64,000 bases of DNA from Acutalibacteraceae bacterium (GTDB lineage: Bacteria; Bacillota; Clostridia; Oscillospirales; Acutalibacteraceae). This document shows positions 39,929 to 64,000 of this stretch, one piece after another. A program made the translations under genes and the position numbers. How positions within the stretch are numbered: position 1 is the stretch's first letter; each line of letters begins with the position of its first letter. The notes under the pieces were generated by a model that was given only the letters and a program-made list of their open reading frames with translations, made no database searches and had not been told where the DNA came from. Where the stretch lies: positions 890-64,889 of the forward strand of contig JAZSKN010000033.1 of NCBI GenBank assembly GCA_045534895.1, given 5' to 3'.

Positions 39929-39951
39929 AATATCAGTCCTTTCTGCTTGTA

Positions 39952-40149
39952 TTGTATCTTAAATTTATCACAATGTCAAGGAAAAGATAAATAAATCTAA
40001 AAAAAAGATACAAAACGCTTGACAAGAATAAAAATTTGTGTTATTATTGTATCGCAAAAAGATACAAGAGGTTGTTTTTTTAAAGAAAATTGTACATAAA
40101 ATGCGCGCAAATATTTTTTTAATCTCTTTGTATCTTCAAAAGATACAAA
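39952..40149. promoter_or_regulatory. Divergent immunity region: six AAGATACAA half-sites and a rightward promoter
   Basis: Half-sites are at 39952-39960 (rc), 40005-40013, 40047-40053 (rc) with 40059-40067, and 40128-40136 (rc) with 40140-40148 (10-3-10 palindrome). The promoter is TTGACA 40019-40024, 17 nt, TATTAT 40042-40047. Confidence 0.6.
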
Positions 40150-40174
40150 TGTATTATATACATCCAAGGAGGAA

Positions 40175-40585: not shown

Positions 40586-40842
40586 AAACTATAGAAAAAT
40601 GCATATGTTCAAAAGAAATTTCAGCACATGGCTTGTGCGAAGAATGTCTTATGCTTTTGAAGGTAAAAAAGTGTAAAAGCATTGCCTTAATTGAAAAAAT
40701 ACGAGCCAATTACAACAAGACACACAGTCAGTATAAAACATACGGTCAATTTGTTGCTATGGTTGAGGAAATTAGTAGGAGGAAAAAGAATTTTGACAAT
40801 AGAAGAAAAAAAGCAAATACTACGAAAATACGGACAAATTGA
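40582..40842 (+). CDS. Small Cys-rich basic phage protein
   Basis: ATGA overlap with the previous gene. CICS..HGLCEEC and a basic tail. Confidence 0.45.
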   Translation: MKTIEKCICSKEISAHGLCEECLMLLKVKKCKSIALIEKIRANYNKTHSQYKTYGQFVAMVEEISRRKKNFDNRRKKANTTKIRTN

Positions 40843-41254
40843 CGAGCGTATTGAACAGCTGCGAAGATCTAAAGAGGAAAGCAAATATTGCGAAAAATAT
40901 CACAGTGTTGATTTTGAAGAAAAGATAAAGGGTAGTAAAAACAAAGGCTCTATTGTTGAGGTTACTGCTGAAAAGCGCGCAGAGAATTGGGATATGCTTA
41001 TAAAAAAAGAACTTGATATTCTTTATGATTTACGTATGAAAATTGAACTTGCAATTAACGCGCTCACCGATTTTACACAGCAACAGCTTTTAAGACTTTT
41101 ATATTTAGGCGAGATTGATGAATACGGTGACAGAAGCCGTTTTTCATTTTTAGAAATATCGGAAAAGCTTAATTACAGTGAACGGCAAATATATCGCATA
41201 TATAAAAAGGCGTTAATTAATCTGCCTGATATATGTGTCAGTGAATGTCAGTAA
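40793..41254 (+). CDS. Phage late transcriptional regulator, sigma-70 region-4-like (DUF1492/ArpU-RinA class)
   Basis: The C-terminus LLRLLYLGE....SFLEISEKLNYSERQIYRIYKKALINL is sigma r4-like. It sits directly upstream of terS. The start is set to TTG 40793 after AGGAGG, so the track start at 40691 is probably too long. Confidence 0.55.
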   Translation: MTIEEKKQILRKYGQIDERIEQLRRSKEESKYCEKYHSVDFEEKIKGSKNKGSIVEVTAEKRAENWDMLIKKELDILYDLRMKIELAINALTDFTQQQLLRLLYLGEIDEYGDRSRFSFLEISEKLNYSERQIYRIYKKALINLPDICVSECQ

Positions 41255-48058: not shown

Positions 48059-48060
48059 TT

Positions 48061-48657
48061 ATGGCTTTTAATAAGTATGGAAAATTAGATGTTTCTATGG
48101 TTAATCAATTGGATGGAATATTAGGTTTTCAAGTGCCACAAGAATATAAAGATTTTTTGATTAATACAAATGGCGGACGTTTTGATTTTGAAGATGAACA
48201 TTATATAGTTGTAAAAAATAAAAAAATATGGATAGACGTTCTTTATGGGAACCAAAAAAATAAACGTTCAAGTTTGTTATTTTGGAATAATGAATATGGT
48301 GATGAAATTCCTGAGAATTCCATCATAATAGGTGATACACAAGATCATAACTTTTTAGTATATCTGTGCGCAGGTGAACAAAAAGGTATTTATTTGTGGG
48401 ATGATACAATGTGTGTTTGTGGTTTATCAGGTGATGGTAGGAATGCTTATTTTATTGCGAATGATATGAATGAATTTTTTAATATGTTTAATATTCAAAC
48501 CAAATTATTTTCTTCAAATGCTACTATATCAAATATAGATAAAAAAATCGGAGAAAGTAACATATTGTATAAGGCGCCAAACGAAAAGAAAATGCAAGTT
48601 ATAGACGCGATAACATTTAAGCGATTTATGCATCGTTGTGAGGATTTTATAATTTAA
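48061..48657 (+). CDS. SUKH/SMI1-KNR4 family immunity protein
   Basis: QVPQEYKDFLINTNGGRF...IIIGD....FLVY......GIYLWD is the SMI1/KNR4 pattern. It lies directly after the WHH tip. Confidence 0.75.
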   Translation: MAFNKYGKLDVSMVNQLDGILGFQVPQEYKDFLINTNGGRFDFEDEHYIVVKNKKIWIDVLYGNQKNKRSSLLFWNNEYGDEIPENSIIIGDTQDHNFLVYLCAGEQKGIYLWDDTMCVCGLSGDGRNAYFIANDMNEFFNMFNIQTKLFSSNATISNIDKKIGESNILYKAPNEKKMQVIDAITFKRFMHRCEDFII

Positions 48658-49064
48658 TATAATTGTTGGATTTTTAATGAAAAAGATTTGGATATAATAG
48701 TTATGTATTATCCAGAGTAGGAGTAATTATTGAAATAATAAGAGACAATGTTGATAAATTAATTGATAAAACAGATTACGAATATAAAAATGAATTTTCT
48801 GATAAAAAGGTGAATACTTTTTTTAATTATTGGCTATTTTTTGATCAAAAAGAATCAGAAATTGTTAAAATGTTAGGTATACCGTTAGATGTTGTGGTGT
48901 ATAGTAAATGGTATTGGAGCGAGCGATATAGGGTGAGTTATGAAGAATTATATAACGAGGAAATTCCAGGTGATCTTTAGGACACAAGGGGACGGTTCTA
49001 TTGTGCCTGCCCTTGTGTCTGTTGGGGTGGTATTAACTGGGCCGACGTAACATATTCTGCTTTA

Positions 49065-49769
49065 TTGGGCGGATTATCTTCTGGTGTATTTGAGTTATCG
49101 CCGAGTGTTTCATCAAATATTAAAAATAATAAGCTTAATCCAAATGAAGTTATTGAAGGTATTTGGGAGGATTCACCAAAAAGAGATAAAAATATTGTCG
49201 AAAAAAGTCAGTTGGAAACATTTGACAACAATAGTAATGATTTGTATAATAACAGTGAAATAAGATTATTAACGAGCGGAAATAGTGGCGGAAAAGCCAA
49301 ACCATATTCTGCAGATAATATTCCGCAATTTATAAATCAATATCTATACAAATTAAAAGATTATGGTGAGATTTTAGAAGTGAAAGAACCACCAAGTTTT
49401 TCTGATATCAGTTTAATGTCAAGGCAATCAGGAACTGAATTTGCATCAATAACCATAGGAGATAATAACTACATTATAAAGGGAGACAATAAAGGTACGC
49501 CAATTTCTAGTGAAATGTTTAAAAAAATTAGAGAAAACAAAGGAATATTAAATTGCCATTCACATCCTTTTATTGATGATTTTAGGGTTTCAAAAGAGGA
49601 TATTAATTTAGCCAAGCAGATGTATTGGCAAAAACAATTTTATATTGTTTCTCCCGATGGTAAATTTGCAACATATAATAGTAACGGAATCATTGATATA
49701 GATATTATAAGAAAAGAACTTGATGATTTGGATTTGGAATTTTATGCGGAATTACTCAGGGAGGATTAA
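49065..49769 (+). CDS. Orphan toxin module 2 (trunk end + junction + JAB/MPN-like tip); no credible start
   Basis: The frame is open from 48981 and the nominal TTG has no RBS. It encodes ..TYSALLGGLSSGVFELSPSVS..NPNEVIEGIWEDSPKRDKNIVEKSQLE, then a tip with CHSHPFIDDFRVSKED (H.H.x8.S..D, JAMM-like). Confidence 0.55.
   Translation: MGGLSSGVFELSPSVSSNIKNNKLNPNEVIEGIWEDSPKRDKNIVEKSQLETFDNNSNDLYNNSEIRLLTSGNSGGKAKPYSADNIPQFINQYLYKLKDYGEILEVKEPPSFSDISLMSRQSGTEFASITIGDNNYIIKGDNKGTPISSEMFKKIRENKGILNCHSHPFIDDFRVSKEDINLAKQMYWQKQFYIVSPDGKFATYNSNGIIDIDIIRKELDDLDLEFYAELLRED
49158..49218 (+). repeat. Trunk/tip junction repeat, copy 2
   Basis: 58 bp (49161-49218) are identical to 50878-50935. Confidence 0.85.
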
Positions 49770-49770
49770 T

Positions 49771-50049
49771 ATGCTAAGTGAAGATGTAGCAATTATTAAA
49801 GGTTTAAAGAAAATTGCTGAGATTTTTGGAATTGAGTATGTAAAAAAACATAAAGATGCGCCTATATGTAGGAGAAGAGAAGGTGATAAACTCATTTTTT
49901 CGTGTCTATATGAAGATGAAGATCAAAGGCCTGATTTAAAACCCGATCACTTAGGGTGGACGGTTTTTGCTGTGGTTGAAGTGAATTTAAAAAAAGAAAC
50001 AGTTAATATTATAGATTATGTTTTACCGGATGGAACCTCAAAACGATAG
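49771..50049 (+). CDS. Putative immunity protein for module 2
   Basis: 92 aa with a GGGAGGA RBS. The ATG lies 1 nt after the toxin-module stop. No family recognised, so the call is positional. Confidence 0.5.
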   Translation: MLSEDVAIIKGLKKIAEIFGIEYVKKHKDAPICRRREGDKLIFSCLYEDEDQRPDLKPDHLGWTVFAVVEVNLKKETVNIIDYVLPDGTSKR

Positions 50050-50114
50050 AATATTAGTAACACAGGGGATTAACACGCTAACCGTCCTCCGTGTTACCTG
50101 AACAAGCATTTTAA

Positions 50115-50176
50115 AAAAAGACAGGGTGGAAGCCTTGTCTTTTAATTTTGGGATTCAAAAAGTGCGACGAGTGTTA
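50115..50176 (+). repeat. 62-bp direct repeat, left copy (contains a terminator hairpin)
   Basis: aaaaagacagggtggaagccttgtcttttaattttgggattcaaaaagtgcgacgagtgtta has one mismatch to 51903-51964. Confidence 0.85.
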
Positions 50177-50304
50177 AGTCGTTTTTAAATTCTGTTGATA
50201 GTGAATTAAATGATTTTGTTGCTCGTGTAAAAAACGGTAGTAAGAAATTTGAACGCTATAAGATTTCAGAGGTAAGCGCACGCGAAGCGGATGATATTAA
50301 AAAT

Positions 50305-51426
50305 TTGCTTGGTATTGATGTTCAGGGTTACACACATAATATAAACAGTGATGGGATAAGGCATATACTTAAACGACATGGCGAAAAGGGACAGCAAGAT
50401 AATACGATGTCGAATGTTGACGATGTAGCTCGTATTGGTTGGGTTATAAATAATTACGATGCGGTTGAATTGATAATAGAAGATGGCAAGCAATCTTATA
50501 GTACGGGATTTGCAAATAAAAACAATAGTCCGGCACCGCAAATAAGATATAGCAAAAAAATAAACGGCACCTACTATGTAGTAGAAGCCATTTTTGAAAA
50601 CAAAAACAATAAACTATGGGTACAATCTGCATATTTGAGTAAAAATAGAGAAGACGTTACGCAAGTCCCCGATGCAGCAGATAAGCCCCCCGAGGTAACG
50701 GCTAAAACCGACCTTCCTTCTCCGTCTTCCAAATTTAGTTTATCACAGGACGTAAAAAAAGTCAATAATGATTACATAAGTAAAGAAGCAAGCTCGCAAG
50801 AAGAGAATGCTTCTTTTTTTGATTATAATTTAGAAAAAACCACACCAAAAATTAATCCCGATGAAGTGATTTCGGGGATTTGGGAGGATTCACCAAAAAG
50901 AGATAAAAATATTGTCGAAAAAAGTCAGTTGGAAAGTGTTGAAAATGTTGGGGATAACTGGTATAATGACAATAATATAATAACTGATGGTAGCCATTTG
51001 GTTAATGACAAGTTAAAGCCGAATGTAAAATATAAGTCCGGTGAGTATGACTATATTTATGCAACCGATCAATCAGGAAGAATAGTCGATTTACATACTG
51101 ATGAATTACAATATACTGAAAGAGATGAGCGCTTAAAACATAATGCTAATTCGCTTGGTAAAGAAATTGGCGATCATGCCGGTCATTTGATAGGAGATCG
51201 ATATGGTGGTTCACCGGATATAGATAATATTGTTTCGCAGTCAGGACTTGTAAATTTAAGCGAATATAAAAAAATAGAAAACATTTGGGCTAGAGCGTTA
51301 GATAGCGGACAAAAAGTTGGCGTCGATATTAAAGTACAATATGAAGGTAATAGTATGAGGCCGTCCTCATTTATTGTTAATTACACTATTGACGGAATTA
51401 AAACGCAAACAACCATAGAGAATTGA
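50305..51426 (+). CDS. Orphan toxin module 3: PBECR-like domain + junction + EssD/YeeF-type (Endonuclease_NS_2) nuclease tip; no credible start
   Basis: The frame is open from 50146 with no RBS. READDIKNLLGIDVQGYTHNINSDGIRHILKRHGEKG is typical of PBECR domains in polyvalent proteins. It is followed by GIWEDSPKRDKNIVEKSQLE and then GDHAGHLIGDRYGGSPDIDNIVSQ...W..AL..G..V.V.I...Y.G.S.RP. Confidence 0.6.
   Translation: MLGIDVQGYTHNINSDGIRHILKRHGEKGQQDNTMSNVDDVARIGWVINNYDAVELIIEDGKQSYSTGFANKNNSPAPQIRYSKKINGTYYVVEAIFENKNNKLWVQSAYLSKNREDVTQVPDAADKPPEVTAKTDLPSPSSKFSLSQDVKKVNNDYISKEASSQEENASFFDYNLEKTTPKINPDEVISGIWEDSPKRDKNIVEKSQLESVENVGDNWYNDNNIITDGSHLVNDKLKPNVKYKSGEYDYIYATDQSGRIVDLHTDELQYTERDERLKHNANSLGKEIGDHAGHLIGDRYGGSPDIDNIVSQSGLVNLSEYKKIENIWARALDSGQKVGVDIKVQYEGNSMRPSSFIVNYTIDGIKTQTTIEN
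50875..50945 (+). repeat. Trunk/tip junction repeat, copy 3
   Basis: See copies 1 and 2. Confidence 0.85.
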
Positions 51427-51440
51427 TGGAGGAAATAGAT

Positions 51441-51887
51441 ATGGCTAAAGTTTTTGAAGATTATTTTTCGGAATTGCAAGCGGATATGGTGGGCATCTGT
51501 ATGGAATACGTAGAGTATCAGGCAGATACAATATACATATATTGTTGTTGTGAAGGTAGAATGATTCATAGTGATTATTTTTATGAGATTGATGGACGAA
51601 TTGTACAAAAACAGCAAGTTAATGATGTTTCTTTTAGAAGCACTGCTATTCCTCAAAATGAAAGCACGTGTTTAAATATATTGATAAACGATGTGCGTGA
51701 ATTAAAAAAGCTTTGCATCGAATACGATAGACCAATGCCAACTCAAATTAAGATGATATATAACGTCAAGCAAAATTCACTTGATGCTAAGTATAAATAC
51801 GACAATCAATGGTTGAATCATAAAACTAAATCATCACCTGATATTTTTGTTGAGTGGTATGAGGAAGTTAAAAATTCAAAGAATTAA
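51441..51887 (+). CDS. DUF600/YezG-like immunity protein for module 3
   Basis: 148 aa with a TGGAGGA RBS. FSELQADMVGICMEYVEYQADTIYIYCCCEG...SDYFYEI resembles the DUF600 immunity proteins that pair with YeeF/EssD nucleases. Confidence 0.5.
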   Translation: MAKVFEDYFSELQADMVGICMEYVEYQADTIYIYCCCEGRMIHSDYFYEIDGRIVQKQQVNDVSFRSTAIPQNESTCLNILINDVRELKKLCIEYDRPMPTQIKMIYNVKQNSLDAKYKYDNQWLNHKTKSSPDIFVEWYEEVKNSKN

Positions 51888-52164: not shown

Positions 52165-54018
52165 ATGAACAATATTAAATTAAATGTAAAAACAATTTGG
52201 TCAGAGTATGAAAACGGTCAGCAATACAAAAACAGTATTGGCGACAAGGGTATTCACGACCAAGCAAGAATAAACGAGCGATTTTTTGTTGGTGATCAGT
52301 GGCACGGTGTAACCGCCGGAAACGAAAAGCCGCTTACGCGAAGAAATATAATTAAAAGAATTGGTGAATATAAAATGGCGACCGTAGGTAGCGCTCCTAT
52401 CGCAGTAAATTATAGCGCAGAGGGTGTGCCCGATGTTACAGATATTGAGGCAATATCGGATGTAAAAGCGCAAATGATGCAAGGCAATTTACCCGAAGAA
52501 AAAGTAAACGATACCGAAATATCGGTTATTATGGGCGCATTAACCAATTATTTTAAAATAACTGCCGAACGCCTTAAATATGACGATAAAAAGGATATGA
52601 TGCTTAAAAATGCGTATATTTCGGGCACGGGTATTTTGTATACATATTGGGACAGCAAAATTAAAACCGGTCTTTATGCCGATATGGAAAGAAAGGTGGC
52701 AATTACGGGTGATATTGCCTGTGAGGTTTTAGATATTGAAAACGTGGTTTTTGGTGACCCTAATAATGAGGACGTTGAAAGTCAGCCATATATTATAATT
52801 GCGCGTCGATTAGACGTAGATGCGGTAAGGCGCGAGGCAGAGCTTTACGGTCAGCCTATAGAGAATATTTTACCCGACGGCACAGACGGTTATTACCGCA
52901 ATGCTGGTGATCGCGGCGAGGACGAGCCAAATGATTCAAACCGAGTTACTGTTATTACAAAGCTGTACAAAAAATATGATGATAACGGCAACCATACCGT
53001 TTACGGTAAAACCGTAACAAAAAACGCCGTTGTAAGACCCGAATGGAATTTGCTGATACACCGTTACCCAATAGCAAAATTTGTTTGGGAAAGAAGAAAA
53101 AGCTGTGCATATGGTGACAGTGAGGTAAGTTACCAAATACCAAACCAAATCGCGCTAAATCAGGCGCATTCGATATCGGTGTGGGCTATGCAAAATACCG
53201 GCATGCCAAAAACCATTATTAACGGTGATCTTATACCCGACGGTATTTCAAATGATCCCGCCGAGGTTATAAAAATTTACGGTAACGCCGAGGATATGGT
53301 GAGCGCAATAAGATATGTTACGCCGCCGAATTATGGCGCGGCATTTATTAATTTTACCGATGCATTTGCTCAAAACATTCTTTTTGATAACGGCGCAAAC
53401 GATGCGGCGCTTGGTAATTTGCGTCCTGACAATGCAACGGCTATTGTACAGGCGCGCGAAGCGGCGCTTGCACCCATGCAGATGTATCAAAACCGTTTTT
53501 ACAGCGCAAACGAGGACGTTGCGCGCATATGGGCGGATTTTTGGATAACTATGTACGGAAAAAGATCGATAAAAATTAATGACAATGGCAACATAAGCTA
53601 CATAGTTTTCGATGCTGACCGCTATAAAGACTTGGTTATTACCGCTAAAATAGATGTTGGCGCATCAACTCTTTGGAGCGAGGCTGTGTCGATATCTAAT
53701 TTAGGTAATTTGTTGGCAAGTGGCATGATAAGCTTTACCGAGTATCTTGAACGTTTGCCAAAAGGATTAATTCCCGACGTTAATGGTCTTATAAACGCAA
53801 GAAAACAACAAGAACAGCAGGCACAGGCAATAAATATGCCGCAAGAGGCAACGACCAATAGTATAACCAACGGTGAATTGCTTGCTGATTTACAGGCAAA
53901 TAACCCGCAAATATATGAGCAATTAATGAATCTACCGCCGGAGGATCAAGAATATGCTATGCAAATGATACGCGACAGCGCAAACATTAATACGCAAGAA
54001 GCATTTAAAATGAATTAA
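52165..54018 (+). CDS. Putative portal protein
   Basis: 617 aa with an acidic C-terminus and an N-terminal ERFFVGDQWHG-type block. The call rests on size and position and was not verified by profile search. Confidence 0.5.
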   Translation: MNNIKLNVKTIWSEYENGQQYKNSIGDKGIHDQARINERFFVGDQWHGVTAGNEKPLTRRNIIKRIGEYKMATVGSAPIAVNYSAEGVPDVTDIEAISDVKAQMMQGNLPEEKVNDTEISVIMGALTNYFKITAERLKYDDKKDMMLKNAYISGTGILYTYWDSKIKTGLYADMERKVAITGDIACEVLDIENVVFGDPNNEDVESQPYIIIARRLDVDAVRREAELYGQPIENILPDGTDGYYRNAGDRGEDEPNDSNRVTVITKLYKKYDDNGNHTVYGKTVTKNAVVRPEWNLLIHRYPIAKFVWERRKSCAYGDSEVSYQIPNQIALNQAHSISVWAMQNTGMPKTIINGDLIPDGISNDPAEVIKIYGNAEDMVSAIRYVTPPNYGAAFINFTDAFAQNILFDNGANDAALGNLRPDNATAIVQAREAALAPMQMYQNRFYSANEDVARIWADFWITMYGKRSIKINDNGNISYIVFDADRYKDLVITAKIDVGASTLWSEAVSISNLGNLLASGMISFTEYLERLPKGLIPDVNGLINARKQQEQQAQAINMPQEATTNSITNGELLADLQANNPQIYEQLMNLPPEDQEYAMQMIRDSANINTQEAFKMN

Positions 54019-54025
54019 AGAAAGG

Positions 54026-54400
54026 ATGAAGATTATGAAAGCGAGCGAATTATTAAATAATGCGCTTAAAATGCTTGGCTACAGCGATAGCGACGGTAAT
54101 GCTGAGTTGACCCAGCGTGTGATAAACGGTGCGATTGTTATTTTGAATTTGGTTTACAGTGATTTATGGCACGTATTTAATACGGGCGATTTTAAGCCCA
54201 TAAAAACCCTTGAGGATGATATCGATATACCGCAAAACGCTTTGCAGGATACCTTTTTATACGGCGTTGCAATGCATATTTCACGCAGTGAAAATGATGG
54301 TGATCAACAGCAGTATTTTGCTTCGTTATATAATGCCAAAAGGGCAAGTCTTACACGGTATGACAAGGTAAAAAACGTTTTACCGCGTCCCGAAATATAA
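54026..54400 (+). CDS. Phage structural-module protein (possible head-tail adaptor)
   Basis: 124 aa, directly after the portal-like gene. Positional inference only. Confidence 0.35.
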   Translation: MKIMKASELLNNALKMLGYSDSDGNAELTQRVINGAIVILNLVYSDLWHVFNTGDFKPIKTLEDDIDIPQNALQDTFLYGVAMHISRSENDGDQQQYFASLYNAKRASLTRYDKVKNVLPRPEI

Positions 54401-54419
54401 TTGAATAGGAAGTGAAAAA

Positions 54420-56588
54420 ATGAAATATCCCCCAATTAACAAACAGCCACGTCGCGAGGTAAACATACCGCAATTATCGGGCGGTCTTAATTTGCGTGAC
54501 GGTTTAAGCGGCATAAAAGATAACCAAATGACCGACTGTGTTAATATGTGGTTTAAAGACGGTATGCTTAAAACGAGACCATCGTTTTATTGTGATAAAG
54601 ATATGAATGGTCCGATTATTGGTAACAGTGATTATGTGATAGACGGTATTAAGGTTCATTCAGAAATATGTAATAATAATGCTGTTCTTGTAAGCTTGAA
54701 GGTAAGTCTTTTTGGTAACACTATAATAGAGTTTTGGTGGCAAAAAGACAACGCCGCATTTGATATGAGTGAGATTGGAAAAGAGGGTGAGTGTAATTAT
54801 TTTTTAACCGAAAAGGACGGCGTGATTTACTGCTATATGTCTGATTACAGTATATATACGCTTAATTATAAAAACGGTGAAAAGATTTGGCAATTGCTTA
54901 GCGATGCAGATTATTATATTCCAACAATTATAACTCATTGCAAGGCCATAAATAACGGGCTTGAATATACAGGCACTATGCTTGAAGGGTACAATATGTT
55001 AACCGAATCGTATAAGATGGTGTATTCTACGGTTAATTTGTCAGATGCCGAAGATAACGTTACACCAATGAGATATGCCTTGATTAAAGAATTGCCTTCT
55101 GATAAAGGTATTATTATTAAAGCGCGTGTTACAACCCCAAGCGGTGTAACACAAGAGCACACTGTAAGTTTTAATAATAATACTTGTTACGAGCAGGTGC
55201 AAAATACACCTAATGACAATATGTATTTGGCAGCGACATCAAAATATATATTTTTTACGGGTGAAAAAAACAGTAACACACCATTAAATATTAGAACTGA
55301 TGACTATGTTGAAGATAATCTTGAAATAACGGTTATTTACCCTAAAAATAATGAAAATGAAAATCTAAAAAAGATATTTAATATGACTCGCAGTATATGG
55401 TTTGGCGGCGCGGCAAACGGCATAGGTAGCGGGTCAAGGTTGTTTTTATGTGGCAACACCAACAGTCAAGAGCAGGCGTTGGTGGTTTGGTCTGCGCTTA
55501 AAAATCCTCTCTACTTTAATGAGAATAACTATGTATACGTTGGTAACAAATCGCACGCGGTTACGGCGTTTGGTCAACAAGGTGAAAAGCTGATTATATT
55601 TAAAAGCAGCGAGATTTATTACTCTTATTATGATTATAACACGGGCATTACATCCGACGACTTAATAAATCAGACTGTAGTGGATTATGAATCAAGCAGT
55701 GTGGTGTTTCCTGTTGTTTTGTTGCATTCTACCGTGGGGTGCGATTGCCCCGATACTATACAGTTATGCCGCAACCGTTTGGTATGGTTAAACAGCGAAG
55801 GCAGGGTTTATACGTTGGTATCGGCTAATCAGTACAGCGAAATGAACGTTTATTTTGTTTCAGAAACGATAGAGAATAAGATTAAAAAGCATGTCAGAAA
55901 CGACTTAATTAAAGCCGTATCACAGGATTTTGACGGTCATTATATGCTGATAATTAATTCGGATGCGTACTTGATGGACTATAACAGCTACGGTTACACG
56001 CACGTATACAGCTATACCAAGAACGAAGATGCAAACGCGCTTATCCCTTGGTATTACTGGACACTTTTACCTAATGAGGCGTTTACTAATGAAACACTTT
56101 GCTATGGCGCAGTTGACGGAAATGTTATTGCGATATATTTATGGCGACCTACCGATGCAAAATGCAGAGCACAATATAGCATTTTAAAAAGCGGCAACAA
56201 CAATTATGCCGATAGTTTTATGAAGTACGATGCTCAAAATGACGCGATAATAGAATCAAAAAACATTTGCTCGGTAATGCAAAGCAAACTATTTGATTTT
56301 TCGTTGTCGGCGTATTTAAAAAAAATAGAAGATATATCGGTGGCGTTTGGCAATAATGGTGGATTGCCTATAAGCGTTACATTTGTTAGCAACGTTGGTA
56401 ACACAAGCAACACAGTTGAACTTTTAGGTAACGCAACCGATAAATTTGACGCAGCATTTATTAGTGTTAAACGCTTTTATCCCAAATTAAGCGCGATACG
56501 CGTTTTTGGTATAAATATTTGCTGTGACGGACCGCTTTTTATAGACGGAATAACTATGAAATACAGATTATTGGGGAGGGTAAAATAA
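54420..56588 (+). CDS. Large virion structural protein (tail/nozzle-like), unassigned
   Basis: 722 aa and translationally coupled to the next gene. No recognisable enzymatic motif. Confidence 0.4.
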   Translation: MKYPPINKQPRREVNIPQLSGGLNLRDGLSGIKDNQMTDCVNMWFKDGMLKTRPSFYCDKDMNGPIIGNSDYVIDGIKVHSEICNNNAVLVSLKVSLFGNTIIEFWWQKDNAAFDMSEIGKEGECNYFLTEKDGVIYCYMSDYSIYTLNYKNGEKIWQLLSDADYYIPTIITHCKAINNGLEYTGTMLEGYNMLTESYKMVYSTVNLSDAEDNVTPMRYALIKELPSDKGIIIKARVTTPSGVTQEHTVSFNNNTCYEQVQNTPNDNMYLAATSKYIFFTGEKNSNTPLNIRTDDYVEDNLEITVIYPKNNENENLKKIFNMTRSIWFGGAANGIGSGSRLFLCGNTNSQEQALVVWSALKNPLYFNENNYVYVGNKSHAVTAFGQQGEKLIIFKSSEIYYSYYDYNTGITSDDLINQTVVDYESSSVVFPVVLLHSTVGCDCPDTIQLCRNRLVWLNSEGRVYTLVSANQYSEMNVYFVSETIENKIKKHVRNDLIKAVSQDFDGHYMLIINSDAYLMDYNSYGYTHVYSYTKNEDANALIPWYYWTLLPNEAFTNETLCYGAVDGNVIAIYLWRPTDAKCRAQYSILKSGNNNYADSFMKYDAQNDAIIESKNICSVMQSKLFDFSLSAYLKKIEDISVAFGNNGGLPISVTFVSNVGNTSNTVELLGNATDKFDAAFISVKRFYPKLSAIRVFGINICCDGPLFIDGITMKYRLLGRVK

Positions 56589-57562
56589 TGAGTTATTATT
56601 CAACCGATTATAATAAAATTTTAGAAGAAGAAAATCAAAAGCTTAATAAGGCGAAAGCTCAAAAGAAGGATGCTGTTAATAAAACGTATGATATGCAGGC
56701 TAATACGGTTAAGGATGAGTACAAAACTGCAATCGACGACCTCGAAATTTCATACGAGGATGAATATGAGCGAAATGCCGTGCAAAAGCTTATCAATCAA
56801 AAAATGATTGCCGAAAAAAATGCAAATTTAGGTTTAACTGACAGCGGACTAAATCGCACACAGCAAACAGCGGCACAGCTTTCGTATTCGAATGCTAAGG
56901 GAAATATAGATTTATCGCGACGCAAAGCGTTAGATGCTTTATCGCAAAATCTTAAATCCGCAATTTCGACCATAGAGCAAAACCGAATTGCAAGTCTTGC
57001 CGATTTGGATGATAAATTTGATGCGCAGGCACAAAGCAATGCAATAAACCGATATAACACCAACATTGAAGCCAATACAAAGATATATCAAGCACAGCAA
57101 AGCGCAAAGCAACCAAGCGCGACAAATGCAAAAAGTGCGGGCAACGAGCAACAAAAAATTTACTGGTTCAGAGGTGTGTCAGATAAAAACGGAAATTATT
57201 TGTACTATAATACACAAACCGGAAAAAATGAAGAAGTGCCGCAATTTATGAATCCATACACGTCAAACGATAACCGCATTGCATATAGAGCAGAGTACAA
57301 CGATAAAAACATAGGATTTTTTAATCTTGCAGACGGAAGTGTCGGTTATCAGCCCAGAGGTCTTAAAAGCGAGGGCGGTAAGTTTATAAGGGTAGAAATA
57401 GACGGTAAACCGTTACAGTTTGATTTGTACGGCAACGGTAAATACAATTCAATTTGGTTTTCGCCATCAAGACATTATTGGATATGGGACGACTTGAGTA
57501 ACAGCTATAAAAATATGGATAAACAAGTAATTGCATATATGTCGCAACAAAAGGGTGGTTAA
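56588..57562 (+). CDS. Phage structural-module protein with N-terminal coiled-coil
   Basis: 324 aa. The start overlaps the previous stop (ATAATG). The N-terminal half is Q/K/A-rich and helical. Confidence 0.4.
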   Translation: MSYYSTDYNKILEEENQKLNKAKAQKKDAVNKTYDMQANTVKDEYKTAIDDLEISYEDEYERNAVQKLINQKMIAEKNANLGLTDSGLNRTQQTAAQLSYSNAKGNIDLSRRKALDALSQNLKSAISTIEQNRIASLADLDDKFDAQAQSNAINRYNTNIEANTKIYQAQQSAKQPSATNAKSAGNEQQKIYWFRGVSDKNGNYLYYNTQTGKNEEVPQFMNPYTSNDNRIAYRAEYNDKNIGFFNLADGSVGYQPRGLKSEGGKFIRVEIDGKPLQFDLYGNGKYNSIWFSPSRHYWIWDDLSNSYKNMDKQVIAYMSQQKGG

Positions 57563-57564: not shown

Positions 57565-60500
57565 ATGGATGATATTAATATATCAAAATTTCGTCTTGGT
57601 GGCGATACTGCTTTAAGTAAAGAGTCACCGGTAAATTTAGATAAATTTAGGGTATTAGATACCAAAAGTTATGATTATTATACAAAGCAAAATCAAATAA
57701 ATGCCGTGGGTATGGATACGCTTAAGGATGACTTGCTTAAGGTCAATAACAGCATACAAAGCGCGTATAGTAATTGGCAAACTAAAGAACAAATGAAAAA
57801 TACGCAGTCTGATATAAAGTCAATGTACACAAGGCTTACGACCTTACAAAACCTTTGTAAAACAAATGGTATTACAGACGGCGAAAAAGAGCTTTCTGAA
57901 GTGGTAGAGGCTTATAAGTCGACACTCGACGGTTGGAACGATTTAGCATCGTACTATAATAAGTTTAAAACGGCTGATGCATATAATAAGAACAACTTGC
58001 AAATTAAAAAACTTAATGATGAATATAATAAGGCGAAAAATGATGACGTTAATGCCGTAAAAGGTGAACTTAATGCTTGGGAAAAAGAATTAGAAAAAAT
58101 ACTTAACGGTAAAGAATGGTTGTCAAATGACGAATGGCGAACAAACAACGATGGTAGCTTTACTATACCGTACAGCGCTACGCATTTGCCCGAGGTGTTT
58201 GCCGGCAAAACCCTTTCACAAGCAGAAGAAATTGTAAAAAACAAAAGGGCATATCTTGAAAAGGCAATAAGAATTCAAGAAGATGAAAAATATTCTAAGC
58301 TTGTTGAGTCGGGCGAAGGCGAAAAGGGTTATAAAAAATGGCTTGAATATGCTAAAGATACAAATGATTATAAATATAATAACGCTACAAAAAAACGGAC
58401 GACCTTTGCGTTGAGCAAGCCTATTCGCGCTGTGTCTGATAATATTATTTTTAATAAAATGCTTGATACAAGCCACGAGCGACCTAAAGATGATTGGACT
58501 AAGAAGGAGCTTTATCAATTTGGGGCAAGATGGGATGAAAATAACCCCGATATTGCTTACAATTATGCAATTCGAGTTAATAACGAAAATGCAATAGAGC
58601 AAAAAAATATAGCCAAACAAAAGGCGGCGGATTTTGCTACCAAAAATTTTGCTACAGGTGCAATTGCAACCATTGGCAGTATTTTGGCAAAAACGCTTGC
58701 GGTATCAGACTATGTTGACGACCTTACCGATAAAGCGGCACATAGAAACGCAATTGTTGAAGAACCTAATTTAACGCCTTTTGAATGGGCAACCGCATCT
58801 ACGGGTGCTATTAGTGAAAAACTTAATCAAATGGGTACGCTTGACAGCAACATACCCATTATAGGCGGTAAGGGTTGGGGTGACCTTTATGCTTTGGGCG
58901 GAAGCATAGCCCAAAGCGCCGCGCTTACTGCAATTGGAGGACCTTGGCTTACTGCTGTTTCGTTTTTTGGTCAAGGCGCTGCAGATGCGGTTAACGATGC
59001 TACCGAACGAGGCGCTACAATTGACGAGGCTTTGTGTTACGGTACAATTGTTGGTGCGGCAGAAATGGTATCGGAATATATTGGCGCCGACAAGCTGTTA
59101 AAGGTTGGCAAGGGTGAAATACTGTCTGCGTTTAAAGAAATTTTAAAGCAGGCGGGCGCAGAAGGCATAGAAGAAATGTTTTCTGAAACAATAAATAATA
59201 TTGCCGATAACGTTATTATGGGTGACAAAAGTAGGTTTAATCAATTGGTAAATCAGTATAAAGCGCAAGGCTTTAGCGAGCAAGCGGCGGCAAGTATGGC
59301 ATGGACAAAGACAATAGAAGAAATTGCCTACAGCGGATTAAGCGGTATGTTATCTGGCGGCGTGCACGCGGCACCCGTCGTTATATTTAATAAAATAAAT
59401 AAAGCTTACCTCGATATGCCCTTAACAAACGGTTATGTGGACGTATCGGTTATAGATTTTTCTAACACAGTTACTAATACCGTTAAAACAAACAACGGCA
59501 ATCAAGTTAATTGGAATGATTTGGATTTTGATCAGCAAACAGCAATAATTGGTGTAAGTAACTTTGCCAAGAATATGGGGTTAAACGTTACCTGGATTTC
59601 CGACGGCGCTAAGCGCGGTATGAACGGCGCTTATGAAATTACCGGCAACAAAATGCTAATTGATGTTAACGCCGGCAAAACTAAGCTTAACGGCAATTCT
59701 TTTGAAAGCACCATAATACCTACAGCCTCGCATGAGATGGTACACTGGGTTAAAAATAAATCACCCGAAATTTATGCAAAACTTGAGAATTTTGTATTTG
59801 AAACATTTGCGTTACAGGGAATAAGCAATGAAAGCGTAGTCGCCAAGCGAAGAACATTAATGGAAAAAGCGCATAAAGATGTTGCTTATACCAATGAAGA
59901 TGTAATAGAAGAAGTAGTAGCAAGAGCCTGTGAAGATATGCTACAAGACAGCAAAAAATTTAAAAAGTGTTTATACACAATGAATACCCTGCAACAAAAA
60001 ACGGTTTTAGGTAAGCTTACAGAGACCTTTAACAGCATTAAAAGATGGATTAATAATTTTTCGTCCGAATCGCATTCAAATTCTGACGAAGCACAAATAA
60101 TCCGCAAAGATATGGTCAGGTTTAAACAACAAATTAATCTTTACGAAAAAATGCTCATTGATGCTTCACAACTTGGTGAGTATAATGATTTTTACGACAC
60201 ATCAAGCACAAACTCGACACAAATTAACAAAATTAAATATTCAGACATAAGTACCGACGGTTTAACAAAACCTAATATATACGAATATGCAAAAAGAATA
60301 AAGCAGAAATATAATTCAAATATAGACGAAGGTGTAATAATGGATAGACTTAAAGCAATTACAAACAATAAGAATTTGCCACAAGATTCATTACTGCAGG
60401 CAGTTTATAATTATAGTGAGAACGAGATAGGCAGGCTTAACCAAACACAACGGTTAATTAATGAATTAGCGGTCGAAATAGCGCAAGGCATTAAACCTGT

Positions 60501-63500
60501 TTATGATGAATATGCCAACGAGGTGTTATCATTTATAAAAGGAGATAATTTATATCTTGACCGAAACCAACGTTTAAAAATAAAGTATATGTACGGTTCG
60601 CTTACCGATTACCATAACAGAGTTGGTATAAAGTTAAGCAATCCTAAAAATCCTTCGTTAGATGAAGACTGGGTTGCGCTTACTGATGCGTGGCAATATT
60701 GGTCAGACGGTTATCCTGAATTATTTAGCAATAAAATCGCGACCGAAGATATGCCGGCACGTCTTGCCGAGGTAATGGAATATCTTAACAGCCAAAGTAT
60801 TGAAACTGATTATGACGAGCAGGCGCAAAACATAGCGCGCGAATTGTACGAGGAAATATACGGTTTGGATTACTATGAGCAAAACAAAGAAACAATTAAA
60901 TGCTATATTGAGTATTTTGCTCAACTTTACCGTGAAAAGCAAATAACAAGCAATAAGTATTCATCGGGAAATGTATACGACGATTTGCTTACTTTAAAAG
61001 AGAGACTTGTAGCCAAAAAACACAGTATAAATGAATATGAGTGCTTTGCTTGGGTTTTGTTTAATGATATATTAAGCAAAGAAAATGTAGAAACACTTTT
61101 TGGCTGTTATGCAGATTATAAAAATAAAAAAATACAGTTTTCACAAACAAAATTTGGTGAAGCCATTGTGTTTTTTGAAGAATGTCCCGATGTTTTGGTT
61201 TATATAAAAGGACCGGCAATAAATCCTGTTGTTACACAAATTGTACAAATAAATAACCAAGATAACGAAATGCTAAGCAAAATCAAAAATATGATTTTGT
61301 TAAACGAAAAAGAGCAAAATATTTTTTCGATGCAGACTGTCAAAAAAGCATTTGGCGAAAATGCCATTACCGTTCATAAACTTGAGAACTATAAATCTTA
61401 TTGGGATTATCAGCGTTGGTTGACCAACAAAAAGAAAAAGCCTGTTAAGATAAAAAATGAAGACGCGGTCGATAAGTCAAAAATAGATGAAGAGGTCGAT
61501 TACGCCGAGCTGCCGAGCAGTCGACAGGCGTGCTTTGTAAAATGCACGGACGAACAGGCTATTGCAAGGGCCGAAAAAATGGAGTTGCAGGGCAAAAGAC
61601 CACTCGATATTTGGCGCGAGTTAAAAATAGTAAGAGGAATTTTTGGAGATTGGGTAACAACAATTGCGGCAGACGGTATTAGGCTTTATGCTAACGGAAC
61701 GGCAAAAACCGATAGCCATACCAGAAATATACGACTTAAAAGAACAGGCGGTAATATTGAGGGTAAATTATCAGACTTTTTAATGTGGAAGCAGCTGTAC
61801 AAAAAATTTCCGCATTTTAAGGATGTGTCAGTATTATTAACCGATGCTAAATATAGCTATGATACCGTAAAATATCTACCCATAAGAAATACCATAGTAG
61901 TAGATAAAAAATTGTGCGAGGAATTTTTAAAAAAGAAAAACCGCGATTTAATTGCTTATATGTTGCGCGAAGTACAAAGAATGATTCAGATTGAAGAAGG
62001 TAAGTATATTGGCAAAAACCGCGATTATTGGGTTGACCAAGAACGTGCCGGTAAATTACCTTTTTCTAAATTATTAAATCGATACTTAACTGCTGATGAT
62101 ATGATGAAATATTTTATAGACAATTATGAGGCAGAAATGGTTGCTAAAATGCAAATTGTAAGCGACCTTATTTATCGTACGGCGCATCACGCGTATCCTG
62201 ATTTTAGTGAGATTATGTTAATTTCACCCGACGTCGAACCCGATAAGGCATTAACCTTTGATAAAGACGAAAATCTGGTAAGTGTTAAAGAAAAAGACGC
62301 TATTGATGGCAATAACTTTTTTAAAGATTATAAAACAACCGAAAAATACACTAAAGAGCCTTATCAAAAAGACGAGACTTTAAAAGATAATAGCAGCATT
62401 AATGAAGCACCCACGAAAAATGAGGGCGACTTTTTTACATCTGCCAATAATCGACAAAATTTGCTTGATAAAGACAACTTTAGCAAATATAATGATAACA
62501 GTTTAAACAAAGGAGAAAAATATAATGGTGAAAACGCCGAGTTACTGGCAAGAGGAGCAATATCAGCCGCTAATAGAGGAGACGACATATTACGGCAACC
62601 CGGTTCTAATTCCAAAACGCTCGCAGAGTGCTTGGGAATGCCGAAAGGAACAAATGAGCCGCATATCGAAGCAATACGGGCAGGAGAATGCGGTTGGTTG
62701 GTTAAAAAATCGAATTCCGCAAGTAAAGAAACACGGAAGAGTTTTAATAGCGGTATTCTTAGAAGAATACGAGGAATAAAACTAAGCGGTAAAGATACTG
62801 TTGGCGGTATAGTAAGTCCGCAAATTTTAGATGAGTTTAAAGATACAATTTGTAAAGATGAAAACGGCAATTTAATTTCACTATATCATTGGACTACTGA
62901 AATTTTCGAAACGTTCAAAAAGGGTGAATTTGGCTTTCATTTTGGAACGCTAAATGCCGCGCGTGACAGATATTTACAATTAAAAGAAGAAACCCCCGAC
63001 ATATCCGCAGGAGTTTTTAAAGAGGTTATTTTAAATATTACAAATCCAATTGAAATAAATGATGAGATGGGAGAGTGGAATGCAAATTGGGTTGCATTCC
63101 ATCTGCTACAAAAAGGTATTATTGATGAGCAACAATATAATGATTTGTCAAAACTATCGGGATTTAACAAGAATACCTATGATAATCCTGCGGCTAAAGC
63201 TGTACGAGAAATTTTGGCTAAAAACGGTTATGACGGTATAATTTATGAAAACTTAAGTGAGGATGTTGGTAGTTATTCGCTGATAGTGTTATATCCGGAA
63301 CAAATTATTACCGTTTCAGAAAACGGAGTTTTAAAAGAGAATAGTGGTATAAGCCGAGCAACCTTAGAAACACAGGTAACTTCTTTAAATTCAGAAGACA
63401 AATCAGCCAATATAATTAATGCGGACGAGGTTATCGAAGGTATTCGCGGTGAAGATAAACGTAGTTTGGGTGATGAGCAAGATACAACCAAAACAAGAGC

Positions 63501-64000
63501 TATACCAGAGCTTGTTGATTTAATAGAGCGTTTGTCAAACGGAGAAGATATAAATATTGATGAGGTAAATGCTCTATCCATTGTTAAAAAGTTAGAGTGT
63601 GAATCTGATTTAAACACAAGTACGCACAAAAATAACTCTAATGAACGTCAGGAGATAAGAAAAGAAATTATAGAAAACCTGTTGAGAAACGGTAGTGCGG
63701 TTATTGACAGGCATAGAAGAGTTACCTATAATGGTAATGTAAAGCAAGAATATCGTGCAGATATTGTAATAGGTTTGCCGGGCTCAGGTAAATCGAGCAC
63801 GTTAGCAGAACCATTATCAGCATTTTACTCATCAAGAGTAATTGACAGCGATATGGTAAAGAAAATGCTGCCGGAATATAATGGCGGTATAGGCGCCGGT
63901 GTTGTACATAAAGAAAGTGTAGATATAAATAATATTATACTTCAAAATGCTTTAGAAAAAGGCGATAATATTGTTTATCAAATGATTGGCGGTGGCAAGG
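57565..64000 (+). CDS. Giant phage polyvalent protein (at least 2145 aa, 3' end outside the window): trunk, HExxH zincin-like, LPD-like, ART-PolyVal-like and zeta-toxin-like P-loop kinase
   Basis: Not in the ORF track. I read every codon from ATG 57565 (RBS AAGGGTGG) to base 64000 and found no stop. Motifs: SHEMVH (59731-59745), LYHWT..FGFHFGT..GYDGIIYEN..SYSLIVLYPEQI (62881-63310), and Walker A GLPGSGKS (63772-63795). Confidence 0.85.
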   Translation, partial: MDDINISKFRLGGDTALSKESPVNLDKFRVLDTKSYDYYTKQNQINAVGMDTLKDDLLKVNNSIQSAYSNWQTKEQMKNTQSDIKSMYTRLTTLQNLCKTNGITDGEKELSEVVEAYKSTLDGWNDLASYYNKFKTADAYNKNNLQIKKLNDEYNKAKNDDVNAVKGELNAWEKELEKILNGKEWLSNDEWRTNNDGSFTIPYSATHLPEVFAGKTLSQAEEIVKNKRAYLEKAIRIQEDEKYSKLVESGEGEKGYKKWLEYAKDTNDYKYNNATKKRTTFALSKPIRAVSDNIIFNKMLDTSHERPKDDWTKKELYQFGARWDENNPDIAYNYAIRVNNENAIEQKNIAKQKAADFATKNFATGAIATIGSILAKTLAVSDYVDDLTDKAAHRNAIVEEPNLTPFEWATASTGAISEKLNQMGTLDSNIPIIGGKGWGDLYALGGSIAQSAALTAIGGPWLTAVSFFGQGAADAVNDATERGATIDEALCYGTIVGAAEMVSEYIGADKLLKVGKGEILSAFKEILKQAGAEGIEEMFSETINNIADNVIMGDKSRFNQLVNQYKAQGFSEQAAASMAWTKTIEEIAYSGLSGMLSGGVHAAPVVIFNKINKAYLDMPLTNGYVDVSVIDFSNTVTNTVKTNNGNQVNWNDLDFDQQTAIIGVSNFAKNMGLNVTWISDGAKRGMNGAYEITGNKMLIDVNAGKTKLNGNSFESTIIPTASHEMVHWVKNKSPEIYAKLENFVFETFALQGISNESVVAKRRTLMEKAHKDVAYTNEDVIEEVVARACEDMLQDSKKFKKCLYTMNTLQQKTVLGKLTETFNSIKRWINNFSSESHSNSDEAQIIRKDMVRFKQQINLYEKMLIDASQLGEYNDFYDTSSTNSTQINKIKYSDISTDGLTKPNIYEYAKRIKQKYNSNIDEGVIMDRLKAITNNKNLPQDSLLQAVYNYSENEIGRLNQTQRLINELAVEIAQGIKPVYDEYANEVLSFIKGDNLYLDRNQRLKIKYMYGSLTDYHNRVGIKLSNPKNPSLDEDWVALTDAWQYWSDGYPELFSNKIATEDMPARLAEVMEYLNSQSIETDYDEQAQNIARELYEEIYGLDYYEQNKETIKCYIEYFAQLYREKQITSNKYSSGNVYDDLLTLKERLVAKKHSINEYECFAWVLFNDILSKENVETLFGCYADYKNKKIQFSQTKFGEAIVFFEECPDVLVYIKGPAINPVVTQIVQINNQDNEMLSKIKNMILLNEKEQNIFSMQTVKKAFGENAITVHKLENYKSYWDYQRWLTNKKKKPVKIKNEDAVDKSKIDEEVDYAELPSSRQACFVKCTDEQAIARAEKMELQGKRPLDIWRELKIVRGIFGDWVTTIAADGIRLYANGTAKTDSHTRNIRLKRTGGNIEGKLSDFLMWKQLYKKFPHFKDVSVLLTDAKYSYDTVKYLPIRNTIVVDKKLCEEFLKKKNRDLIAYMLREVQRMIQIEEGKYIGKNRDYWVDQERAGKLPFSKLLNRYLTADDMMKYFIDNYEAEMVAKMQIVSDLIYRTAHHAYPDFSEIMLISPDVEPDKALTFDKDENLVSVKEKDAIDGNNFFKDYKTTEKYTKEPYQKDETLKDNSSINEAPTKNEGDFFTSANNRQNLLDKDNFSKYNDNSLNKGEKYNGENAELLARGAISAANRGDDILRQPGSNSKTLAECLGMPKGTNEPHIEAIRAGECGWLVKKSNSASKETRKSFNSGILRRIRGIKLSGKDTVGGIVSPQILDEFKDTICKDENGNLISLYHWTTEIFETFKKGEFGFHFGTLNAARDRYLQLKEETPDISAGVFKEVILNITNPIEINDEMGEWNANWVAFHLLQKGIIDEQQYNDLSKLSGFNKNTYDNPAAKAVREILAKNGYDGIIYENLSEDVGSYSLIVLYPEQIITVSENGVLKENSGISRATLETQVTSLNSEDKSANIINADEVIEGIRGEDKRSLGDEQDTTKTRAIPELVDLIERLSNGEDINIDEVNALSIVKKLECESDLNTSTHKNNSNERQEIRKEIIENLLRNGSAVIDRHRRVTYNGNVKQEYRADIVIGLPGSGKSSTLAEPLSAFYSSRVIDSDMVKKMLPEYNGGIGAGVVHKESVDINNIILQNALEKGDNIVYQMIGGGK

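Follow-up and report, generated by a model that had tools for sequence, protein, structure and literature searches.

A gene for a giant polyvalent-type protein in the late operon of a phage-derived element of an Acutalibacteraceae bacterium

An open frame and the modules of its product

We analysed a stretch of 64,000 nucleotides from an Acutalibacteraceae bacterium (contig JAZSKN010000033.1; the whole stretch is called the window below), at whose right end an open reading frame (ORF) encodes the larger part of a giant protein. This gene is part of the late operon of a chromosomal phage-derived element whose host is a spore-forming member of the Clostridia (Firmicutes), probably of the order Oscillospirales (Table 1). 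Its ATG stands two bases past the TAA (57560-57562) of an upstream 324-residue ORF and 6 nt behind a ribosome-binding-like site, a tightly coupled arrangement. Translated from there, the frame contains 2145 codons and zero stops and is still open at the window end; the other two plus-strand frames hold 144 and 283 stops across the same interval. Given the local base composition, a stop-free run of this length would arise by chance with a probability of ~10^-75. The frame is missing from the ORF list that accompanied the sequence because the list leaves out ORFs running off the source.

A database protein from a 103,286-bp NCBI contig, P0001, shows 100% identity across all 2145 residues and totals 3334 residues. 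The window frame is the 5' ~two-thirds of a 3334-codon gene for a giant polyvalent protein. Relatives of 2.4-3.7 thousand residues occur in independent assemblies, which argues against an assembly artefact. An earlier note on this DNA, made from the letters alone, had reported an uninterrupted frame of at least 2145 codons that the ORF track missed and had taken its product for a polyvalent-type giant protein of a phage. Both claims hold, as P0001 continues to residue 3334 and the gene lies within a phage structural operon. The positions given there for HEMVH and GLPGSGKS were exact, and its ART-like stretch (62881-63310) falls within the Pfam match at residues 1765-1920. Three antisense ORFs inside the giant gene (58216-58620, 62364-62870 and 63273-63629, minus strand; 118-168 codons, TTG starts) are most likely chance frames in AT-rich DNA.

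Table 1. Positions of the features discussed, by order along the window; residue numbers are those of P0001.
Feature	Position	Strand	Basis or remark
CI/LexA-type repressor (HTH_3 + Peptidase_S24)	39314..39928	-	element left end, directly past host PfkB (kdgK-like) gene
Late transcriptional activator-like protein	40691..41254	+	phrog_36, phrog_248, phrog_836
Terminase small subunit	41355-41711	+	
Terminase large subunit	41689-43059	+	
Putative scaffold protein	43369-44181	+	position only
Major head protein	44204-45091	+	phrog_422
Toxin/immunity insertion, 7 kb	45305..51887	+	between capsid and portal genes
917-residue toxin, WHH nuclease end	45305-48058	+	
SUKH immunity gene	48061-48657	+	directly past 917-residue toxin gene
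234-residue fragment	49065-49769	+	cassette-like; linker stretch in common with 917-residue protein
PBECR3 + Endonuclease_NS_2 protein	50305-51426	+	linker stretch in common with 917-residue protein
154-residue ORF	51423-51887	+	in toxin/immunity block
Portal	52165-54018	+	phrog_156
Three conserved proteins (124, 722 and 324 residues)	within 52165..57562 (past portal)	+	conserved in relatives
Ribosome-binding-like site GGGTGG	57553-57558	+	read from sequence
Giant polyvalent protein gene (P0001), first 2145 of 3334 codons	57565..64000	+	translation, database identity
N-terminal region, residues 1-299	57565..58461	+	K/N/E/L-rich; common to ~18 of 72 relatives
Carrier module, residues ~300-615	58462..59409	+	conservation across family, AlphaFold2 model
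Zincin-like HExxH domain, residues ~650-870 (~220 residues)	59512..60174	+	alignment, AlphaFold2 model
HEMVH, residues 723-727	59731-59745	+	
Putative third zinc ligand, E783	59911-59913	+	conservation
Middle region, residues 871-1764	60175..62856	+	modules patchily matched in relatives
ART-PolyVal ADP-ribosyltransferase domain, residues 1765-1929	62857..63351	+	Pfam PF18760
Zeta-toxin-like P-loop kinase, start (residues 2065 to ~2197; cut by window end)	63757..64000	+	Pfam PF06414
Walker A GLPGSGKS, residues 2070-2077	63772-63795	+	kinase domain
IDSD with catalytic-Asp equivalent	63841-63852	+	kinase domain

A large protein collection yielded 72 relatives of P0001, nearly all of the size given above. 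Their mix of Pfam domains varies and includes ART-PolyVal, MuF_C (internal in some distant relatives), LPD3 and Zeta_toxin, names that were checked; other accessions we take to be PBECR3/4, LPD1 and DNA methylase and, as C-terminal nucleases, WHH and Colicin-DNase. Counted in 50-residue bins, residues ~300-610 of P0001 are common to up to 62 of the 72 relatives and residues ~650-850 to up to 49; the remainder is patchy, matched by at most a handful. Judged from these alignments, the conservation map is that of a constant N-terminal part plus shuffled downstream modules. For the first 299 residues, which the earlier note had taken for a coiled coil, there are weak matches only, to coiled-coil-like Pfam families.

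The region that we call the carrier module is the true signature of the family. Across 26 diverse sequences its alignment contains 12 invariant columns, and a GGKGWGD motif is nearly invariant. The AlphaFold2 (AF2) model of the module is all alpha-helical (predicted local distance difference test, pLDDT, 81) and includes three Gly/Ala-rich, mildly hydrophobic helices (residues 362-380, 441-469 and 590-608); among the first 1200 residues of the protein, the sole mildly hydrophobic 19-residue windows are found here. The module has no Pfam match. When its profile was compared with 1.84 billion cluster representatives, 4668 proteins were matched at E<=1e-3 and 1387 at E<=1e-30; in the best 150 listed matches the module is near the N-terminus, and most of these proteins have 2.5-4.4 thousand residues. 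The family thus comprises thousands of cluster representatives, here mostly from gut and rumen-type assemblies. An alignment-based scan found the carrier on 20 IMG/VR viral contigs, nine of them of 38-44 kb, and a scan of IMG/VR using the single protein found no match. Among GenBank phages, megablast of 52-64 kb found no match, and tblastn of the protein gave just two weak matches at the level of the ART domain. A scan of species-representative genomes returned two relatives, L001 and L002.

Behind the carrier lies the second conserved part, with the HExxH motif that the earlier note had pointed out. The motif is retained in 45 of 46 aligned homologous segments. In a 32-sequence alignment G688, H723, E724 and H727 are invariant and E783 is present in at least 90%, and the AlphaFold model built from this alignment (pLDDT 86.9; predicted template modelling score, pTM, 0.87) runs in the order helix, three strands, HExxH helix and a later Glu helix. 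The same order of helices and strands makes up the zincin core described by Iyer et al. 2017 (PMC5512222). Nine matches among predicted viral structures (BFVD) were significant (E 3e-8 to 5e-4), all of them pieces of giant proteins from uncultured Podoviridae or Myoviridae labelled as PolyVal ART, LPD-containing, MuF_C-containing, nuclease or 'IrrE N-terminal-like' (E 1e-4). We read this domain as a predicted zincin-like metallopeptidase of the polyvalent-protein kind; motif and topology support the reading, and from them we infer catalysis. The motif noted earlier is thus borne out by its invariance in all 32 aligned relatives, the near-invariant downstream Glu and the zincin-like predicted topology.

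The two enzymatic domains that the earlier note had placed further downstream are likewise recovered by profile searches. The ART-PolyVal model scores 38.3 bits on the window part (residues 1765-1920) and 44.1 bits on the segment alone, above its cut-off of 31.2. The clade is defined by His in strand 1, Tyr in strand 2 and Asp in strand 5 (Iyer et al. 2017, PMC5512222). The consensus of 51 aligned ART-like domains from relatives is YHGT / GxGxYFT / GYDGI, and the window copy has H1775 (LYHWT) and D1890 (GYDGI). For the kinase, the 81 residues inside the window score 21.0 bits with Zeta_toxin (cut-off 22.3), and the whole domain scores 41.0 bits (E 1.8e-10; segment 1950-2320). A profile of eight relatives compared with the PDB retrieved zeta toxin 1gvn (E 1e-9), polynucleotide kinase Pnkp1 (6e-5) and PezT (1.6e-4); the single sequence had no kinase match in the PDB, so that the profile was needed. 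K2076, D2094/D2096 and R2178/R2182/R2188 are invariant in the eight relatives and align to 1gvn, the Asp of IDSD aligning to that of IDND. By these profile matches, the assignment to a predicted zeta-toxin-like kinase stands.

One proposal is not supported. The earlier note had described an LPD-like segment in the middle region; when the protein was scanned segment-wise with Pfam, no LPD model (LPD1-39) reached its cut-off, and the only LPD matches were LPD14 at 14.6 bits, within the carrier, and LPD23 at 13.4 bits (residues 1329-1352) versus 27. The stretch in question (residues ~1321-1645) is a conserved module common to the relatives P0002 and P0003, with a weak phrog_30076 match at residues 1409-1476, and the LPD3 domain of P0003 (its residues 1302-1402) lies outside the part aligned to it. 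Another module of ~130 residues (1152-1290) is patchily common to P0002, P0003, P0004 and P0011.

Beyond the window, P0001 continues as one chain of 3334 residues, so that ART-PolyVal, the Zeta_toxin kinase, the HExxH domain and three further ART-like repeats are joined in a single protein. The three repeats (residues 2484-2653, 2748-2905 and 3032-3191) and a terminal domain of ~100 residues occupy residues 2484-3334, equivalent to ~65.0-67.6 kb. Several ART copies within one polyvalent protein are already known (Iyer et al. 2017, PMC5512222). P0002 has the same three repeats and, at its end, a Colicin-DNase/WHH nuclease. The terminal domain of P0001 has no Pfam or PDB match; its His...Cys pattern (IHGD...ISCESG) made a clan-CD peptidase a candidate, which we rejected for want of Pfam or PDB support. 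In distant relatives many ART domains close with the motif D[IVLM][RKH][YF]S, mostly DIRYS (for example at residues 1657 and 1814 of P0004). It occurs once or twice per protein, versus a shuffle expectation of ~0.04, and is absent from P0001 and P0002. A role of DIRYS as a general cleavage site between modules was rejected: it is found at most twice per protein and only after ART domains, with none in P0001.

A recurring element with toxin and immunity genes

The first 39.25 kb of the window are host DNA, with genes for a histidine kinase, the SpoIVB sporulation peptidase, glycoside hydrolases, a class A penicillin-binding protein (PBP), an aldolase and PfkB. Between the repressor that opens the element and the terminase (39252-41254), no integrase or replication genes are found, only small ORFs and the late-activator-like gene. 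The true start of this last gene is probably later than the listed one because its relatives are ~148-155 residues long. Its product has 69-91% identity to members of at least 150 clusters from Clostridia, Ruminococcaceae and Oscillospiraceae assemblies (P0233-P0352), some on contigs of up to 640 kb; this wide, strong conservation suggests that the element type is common in the Clostridia/Ruminococcaceae/Oscillospiraceae clade. The 124-, 722- and 324-residue proteins are, from their position only, presumed to be the adaptor, tail hub and plug of a short tail; the 722-residue protein has no PDB sequence match. No tRNA attachment site was found within the window.

The whole element can be seen around P0002, the relative that scores best and aligns over the widest part of the protein, where the loci L006 and L003 on one NCBI contig span ~25.4 kb. 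By function, its genes up to the head run repressor, late activator, terminase, capsid and portal. Its left part reads PBP, aldolase and PfkB, then repressor, 135, 90, 154, terminase small and large subunits, 81, 272, 295 and 615 residues; its right part reads 121, 722, 321, the giant (3073 residues), two SUKH genes, a 752-residue tail fibre, 98, an amidase and a holin, followed by TspO, MscL and Spo0A. Genes for an integrase, replication, tail tube, sheath, tape measure, major tail protein, tail chaperone or distal tail protein are absent from this bounded element. The same left (kdgK) junction is present in eight assemblies (the window, L006, L007, L008, L090, L093, L094 and L095) and the same right junction in three (L003, L001 and L090). 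In the relatives, phage-like genomes included, the order is fixed, with the giant gene between the tail genes and the tail fibre. More distant family members are encoded by 43-kb phage genomes of ordinary appearance, in which a serine recombinase and portals of the P22/SU10 type are found.

Two further loci were observed. L089 (8319-20474) carries the same type of element, repressor first, beside a class I tRNA synthetase gene and a small multidrug export-like gene; because this chromosomal context is different, the element is not confined to one site. L090 (8329-17153) is a decayed copy at the same kdgK / tspO-mscL-spo0A site, which retains the repressor, small ORFs, a shortened terminase, a 104-residue LHH nuclease fragment, SUKH_5, the fibre and the lysis genes; its capsid, portal and giant genes are gone.

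Nucleases next to SUKH genes recur in these elements. P0002 and P0003 have WHH/Colicin-DNase domains at the extreme C-terminus, and SUKH genes come after them; in the L090 remnant the LHH gene is followed by the SUKH_5 gene, and behind the WHH-ended giant protein of L091 three SUKH proteins are encoded (18879-24602). The giants of L007 and L008 match Endonuclea_NS_2 somewhere along their length. A conserved N-terminus, a variable C-terminal toxin and a downstream immunity gene, the features by which polymorphic toxins are recognised (Zhang et al. 2012), are found in P0002, in P0003 and in the 917-residue protein of the window with its SUKH gene. One of the L091 SUKH proteins is 1322 residues long; with its many SUKH repeats it is a fused immunity array of unusual size.

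L006 and L007, which are syntenic relatives, lack the 7-kb block that contains the 917-residue toxin. The block has the look of a polymorphic-toxin locus in which cassettes are kept in reserve. Its 917-residue protein is a member of another, small family of polymorphic toxins whose C-termini are swapped. The earlier note had suggested that it has the carrier in common with the giant protein, and this received moderate support: in hhalign with trimmed profiles, 118-146 of its columns align to the carrier core with a probability of 87% (E 4e-6, versus 0.31 for the reversed control), whereas the untrimmed whole-length comparison aligned 23 columns only. A distantly related loading module common to both proteins is plausible, not proven, from these profile alignments. 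The product of the 234-residue fragment has no Pfam or PHROG match at the thresholds used; its C-terminal ...CHSHPFIDDFRVSKED... resembles, by eye, a JAB/JAMM (HxH...S..D) metal-binding motif.

Possible roles of the giant protein

What might such a protein do? We favour, with moderate confidence and chiefly from gene and domain content, a virion-cargo polyvalent protein that follows polymorphic-toxin logic and is encoded in a short-tailed phage-derived element. SOS cleavage of the S24 repressor would let the late activator switch the operon on, and the N-terminal helical module would load the protein into the capsid or the tail channel. The mildly hydrophobic helices of the carrier may then help the protein across the target envelope, as the ejection proteins of short-tailed phages do; in P22 the genes of these proteins likewise follow the tail-hub genes. 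In the recipient cell, the ART and the kinase would modify their targets. The zincin-like metallopeptidase may cut the polypeptide into its modules, a release that Iyer et al. 2017 (PMC5512222) proposed for this class of zincin domain.

The effectors are best read as toxins aimed at non-immune cells and not only as anti-defence factors; we favour the weapon role over a purely anti-defence one, as immunity genes shield the producing cell and its kin. The same two options were put forward for MuF toxins by Jamet et al. 2017 (PMC5576092). The earlier note had proposed that proteins of this sort are injected to disarm host defences. We keep the proposed injection and revise the purpose, as the nuclease ends and SUKH genes of P0002 and P0003 point to a toxin role.

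Several observations weigh against a delivered toxin of this kind. Packaging and ejection are argued by analogy: Pfam and PHROGs recognise no MuF, portal-fusion or other known packaging domain in the giant protein, the carrier module has no PDB sequence match or significant PDB fold match, and its helices peak at Kyte-Doolittle 1.55, which falls below the usual transmembrane threshold. The short tail is read from gene count, content and position, and the closest counterparts of the capsid protein in culture (~30% identity) are found, among others, in Lactococcus phage 1358 and in Clostridium phage phi CD119, both of which have long tails. The enzymes themselves are uneven. For the HExxH domain there is no Pfam peptidase match, no NCBIfam match and no PDB sequence match, and the six best PDB fold matches of its model, all to anthrax lethal factor, are not significant (E 0.2-0.7); lethal factor is the template also used by Iyer et al. 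2017 (PMC5512222). In the window ART the strand-2 Tyr is replaced (FHFGT, with His at the Tyr position, versus YFT in most), a variant also present in P0012 and P0060. The three further ART-like copies keep the Asp (GYD/GVD) and lack His and Tyr; judging from these residues, catalysis of the usual kind is improbable for them. An immunity gene for P0001 itself is unproven.

The earlier note's own reading deserves the most attention among the alternatives: a classical polyvalent protein of a functional temperate phage, injected with the genome so that restriction, CRISPR or other host defences are neutralised and the cell is taken over. Iyer et al. 2017 (PMC5512222) proposed this very role for polyvalent proteins with ART, metallopeptidase and zeta-kinase domains, and the distant relatives on 38-44 kb viral contigs, with the portals and recombinase described above, look like real phages. 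C. clostridioforme prophages with an 8-kb ORF of this sort also release podovirus-like particles (PMC11318856). Such a phage is nevertheless hard to reconcile with a fully bounded relative that has no integrase or replication genes and with one junction shared by eight assemblies. DNase ends with adjacent SUKH genes, as in the close relatives, guard the producer and its kin and make little sense against a cell that the phage needs alive, and Pfam scans of the giant protein recognised no anti-restriction domain (ArdC, DarB-type methylase or helicase, Ocr). We regard this alternative as doubtful.

Both remaining alternatives do without delivery from a phage head. The giant protein could be an unpackaged, bacteriocin-like toxin, freed by holin/endolysin lysis and entering target cells on its own. 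The toxin-plus-immunity organisation of the relatives, the lysis cassette at the operon end and the lack of a known packaging domain would all suit such a toxin; against it stand the fixed position of the gene, which in every relative (bona fide phage genomes included) lies behind the tail genes and ahead of the tail fibre, and the conserved N-terminal module, carried by thousands of cluster representatives and by viral contigs of IMG/VR. Moreover, neither Pfam nor the hydrophobicity of the first 1200 residues revealed a signal peptide-like N-terminus, a receptor-binding domain or a translocation domain, and we consider a free toxin quite improbable. Less probable still, and in our view very much so, is a structural tail component, tape-measure-like or in the tail lumen, that bears accessory enzymatic domains and is not primarily a delivered effector. 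The gene does have the position of a tape-measure gene, past the head and connector genes and ahead of the fibre, and Gly/Ala-rich mildly hydrophobic helices like those of the carrier are frequent in tape-measure proteins. A ruler of 3000 residues would however imply an implausibly long tail, in an element without major tail, tail chaperone, distal tail or sheath genes, and two-thirds of the protein consists of variable enzymatic modules swapped among relatives.

The virion-cargo toxin that we favour can be carried one step further, as a tentative proposal. The element may be a domesticated, SOS-inducible, short-tailed particle system, fixed between kdgK and tspO-mscL-spo0A in a gut Oscillospirales clade, that injects giant polymorphic toxins and kills non-immune relatives. 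It would be like PBSX or tailocins, but with a protein toxin cargo and cognate immunity arrays. Because the element has no integrase, we propose that such a system might spread by in-situ packaging and homologous recombination.

Comparison with known systems

The kind of protein described here is already known, from polyvalent proteins (PMC5512222) and from phage-borne polymorphic toxins (PMC5576092). Three features depart from the published descriptions: the family-specific N-terminal module without a Pfam model; HNH-type nucleases and SUKH arrays on polyvalent proteins; and an element of regulatory, packaging, structural and lysis genes only, at a recurrent site. Metallopeptidase, ART and zeta-like kinase were described as domains of virion-delivered polyvalent proteins by Iyer, Burroughs, Anand, de Souza and Aravind 2017 (PMC5512222), and the giant protein resembles these in being a giant chain that unites a zincin-like HExxH domain (the hub domain of their survey) with an H-Y-D-clade ART and a zeta-like kinase, encoded among virion genes, here in a prophage of a spore-forming Clostridia bacterium. 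It differs in having no MuF, N4-type RNA polymerase, ArdC or DdrB-ParB domain and in its own N-terminal helical module. The HNH/WHH nucleases and SUKH immunity genes of close relatives also set the family apart, as DNases other than ParB-like ones were stated not to accompany polyvalent proteins (PMC5512222), and so does an element without integrase and replication genes.

MuF polymorphic toxins have an immunity gene next door and are several times smaller than the giant protein. Like it, they are phage-encoded in gut Firmicutes, combine a conserved virion-associated N-terminus with a variable C-terminal toxin and have been proposed as a particle-delivered weapon (PMC5576092); unlike it, they have a MuF domain and one toxin, where the giant protein has several enzymatic modules.

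Short-tailed phages store large proteins in the capsid and eject them ahead of or with the DNA, among them the N4 virion RNA polymerase (~3500 residues), T7 gp14-16 and P22 gp7/gp20/gp16. The giant gene likewise lies past the tail-hub genes; we found no sequence or fold similarity to these proteins, and the giant protein has no polymerase or transglycosylase domain. The N4 polymerase carries a metallopeptidase region needed for encapsidation (Iyer et al. 2017, PMC5512222).

In gene content, the bounded relative is closest to PBSX-type prophages, phage-like bacteriocins and gene transfer agents: repressor, late activator, terminase, structural and lysis genes only, at a recurrent site. In PBSX the tail is contractile and no protein toxin cargo is known, whereas the element has a presumed short tail, giant polymorphic toxins and immunity genes and is known here from genes alone. 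Among toxins, the kinase is like zeta and PezT (1gvn, 2p5t) in its Walker A motif, the IDxD Asp aligned to IDND, the conserved Arg and the 41-bit match; it is unlike them in being embedded in a giant protein, with no epsilon or PezA-type antitoxin seen in relatives, and the residue aligned to the active-site Glu region of zeta toxin differs (by eye). The prophages phi1 and phi4 of C. clostridioforme LM41 are ~41 kb long and podovirus-like, with particles seen by electron microscopy and one 8-kb ORF, ~20% of the genome, that has limited LPD3 similarity (PMC11318856). They are reported as intact and spontaneously released, unlike the element described here, and their ORF is likened to the giant protein by description only.

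Giant polyvalent proteins have been predicted since 2017 and, to our knowledge, almost none has been tested. The present family yields concrete predicted enzymes with testable targets (ART, zeta-like kinase and metallopeptidase), and its conserved core of helical module and zincin-like domain could serve as the handle by which proteins are loaded into capsids. Should the reading as toxin plus immunity be true, gut Clostridia would inject multi-enzyme toxins into competitors via phage heads; this would be a new delivery route among interbacterial weapons and a natural chassis for the delivery of large proteins.

Lastly, the edges of the element were compared among assemblies. A PfkB-based metagenome scan for an empty site returned only more distant hosts (aldolase ~50% identical), in which both the element and the spo0A flank are missing. 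Host proteins that flank the element share 83-98% identity between the window and L006, and element proteins 38-87%. Next to the left junction (35017-39251, compared with L006/L007), identity is 96-98% for PfkB, 91-94% for the aldolase and 79-83% for PBP, the next gene out, versus 38-87% for the element genes. The higher conservation of PfkB and the aldolase could reflect gene-specific constraint or recombination at the element edge.

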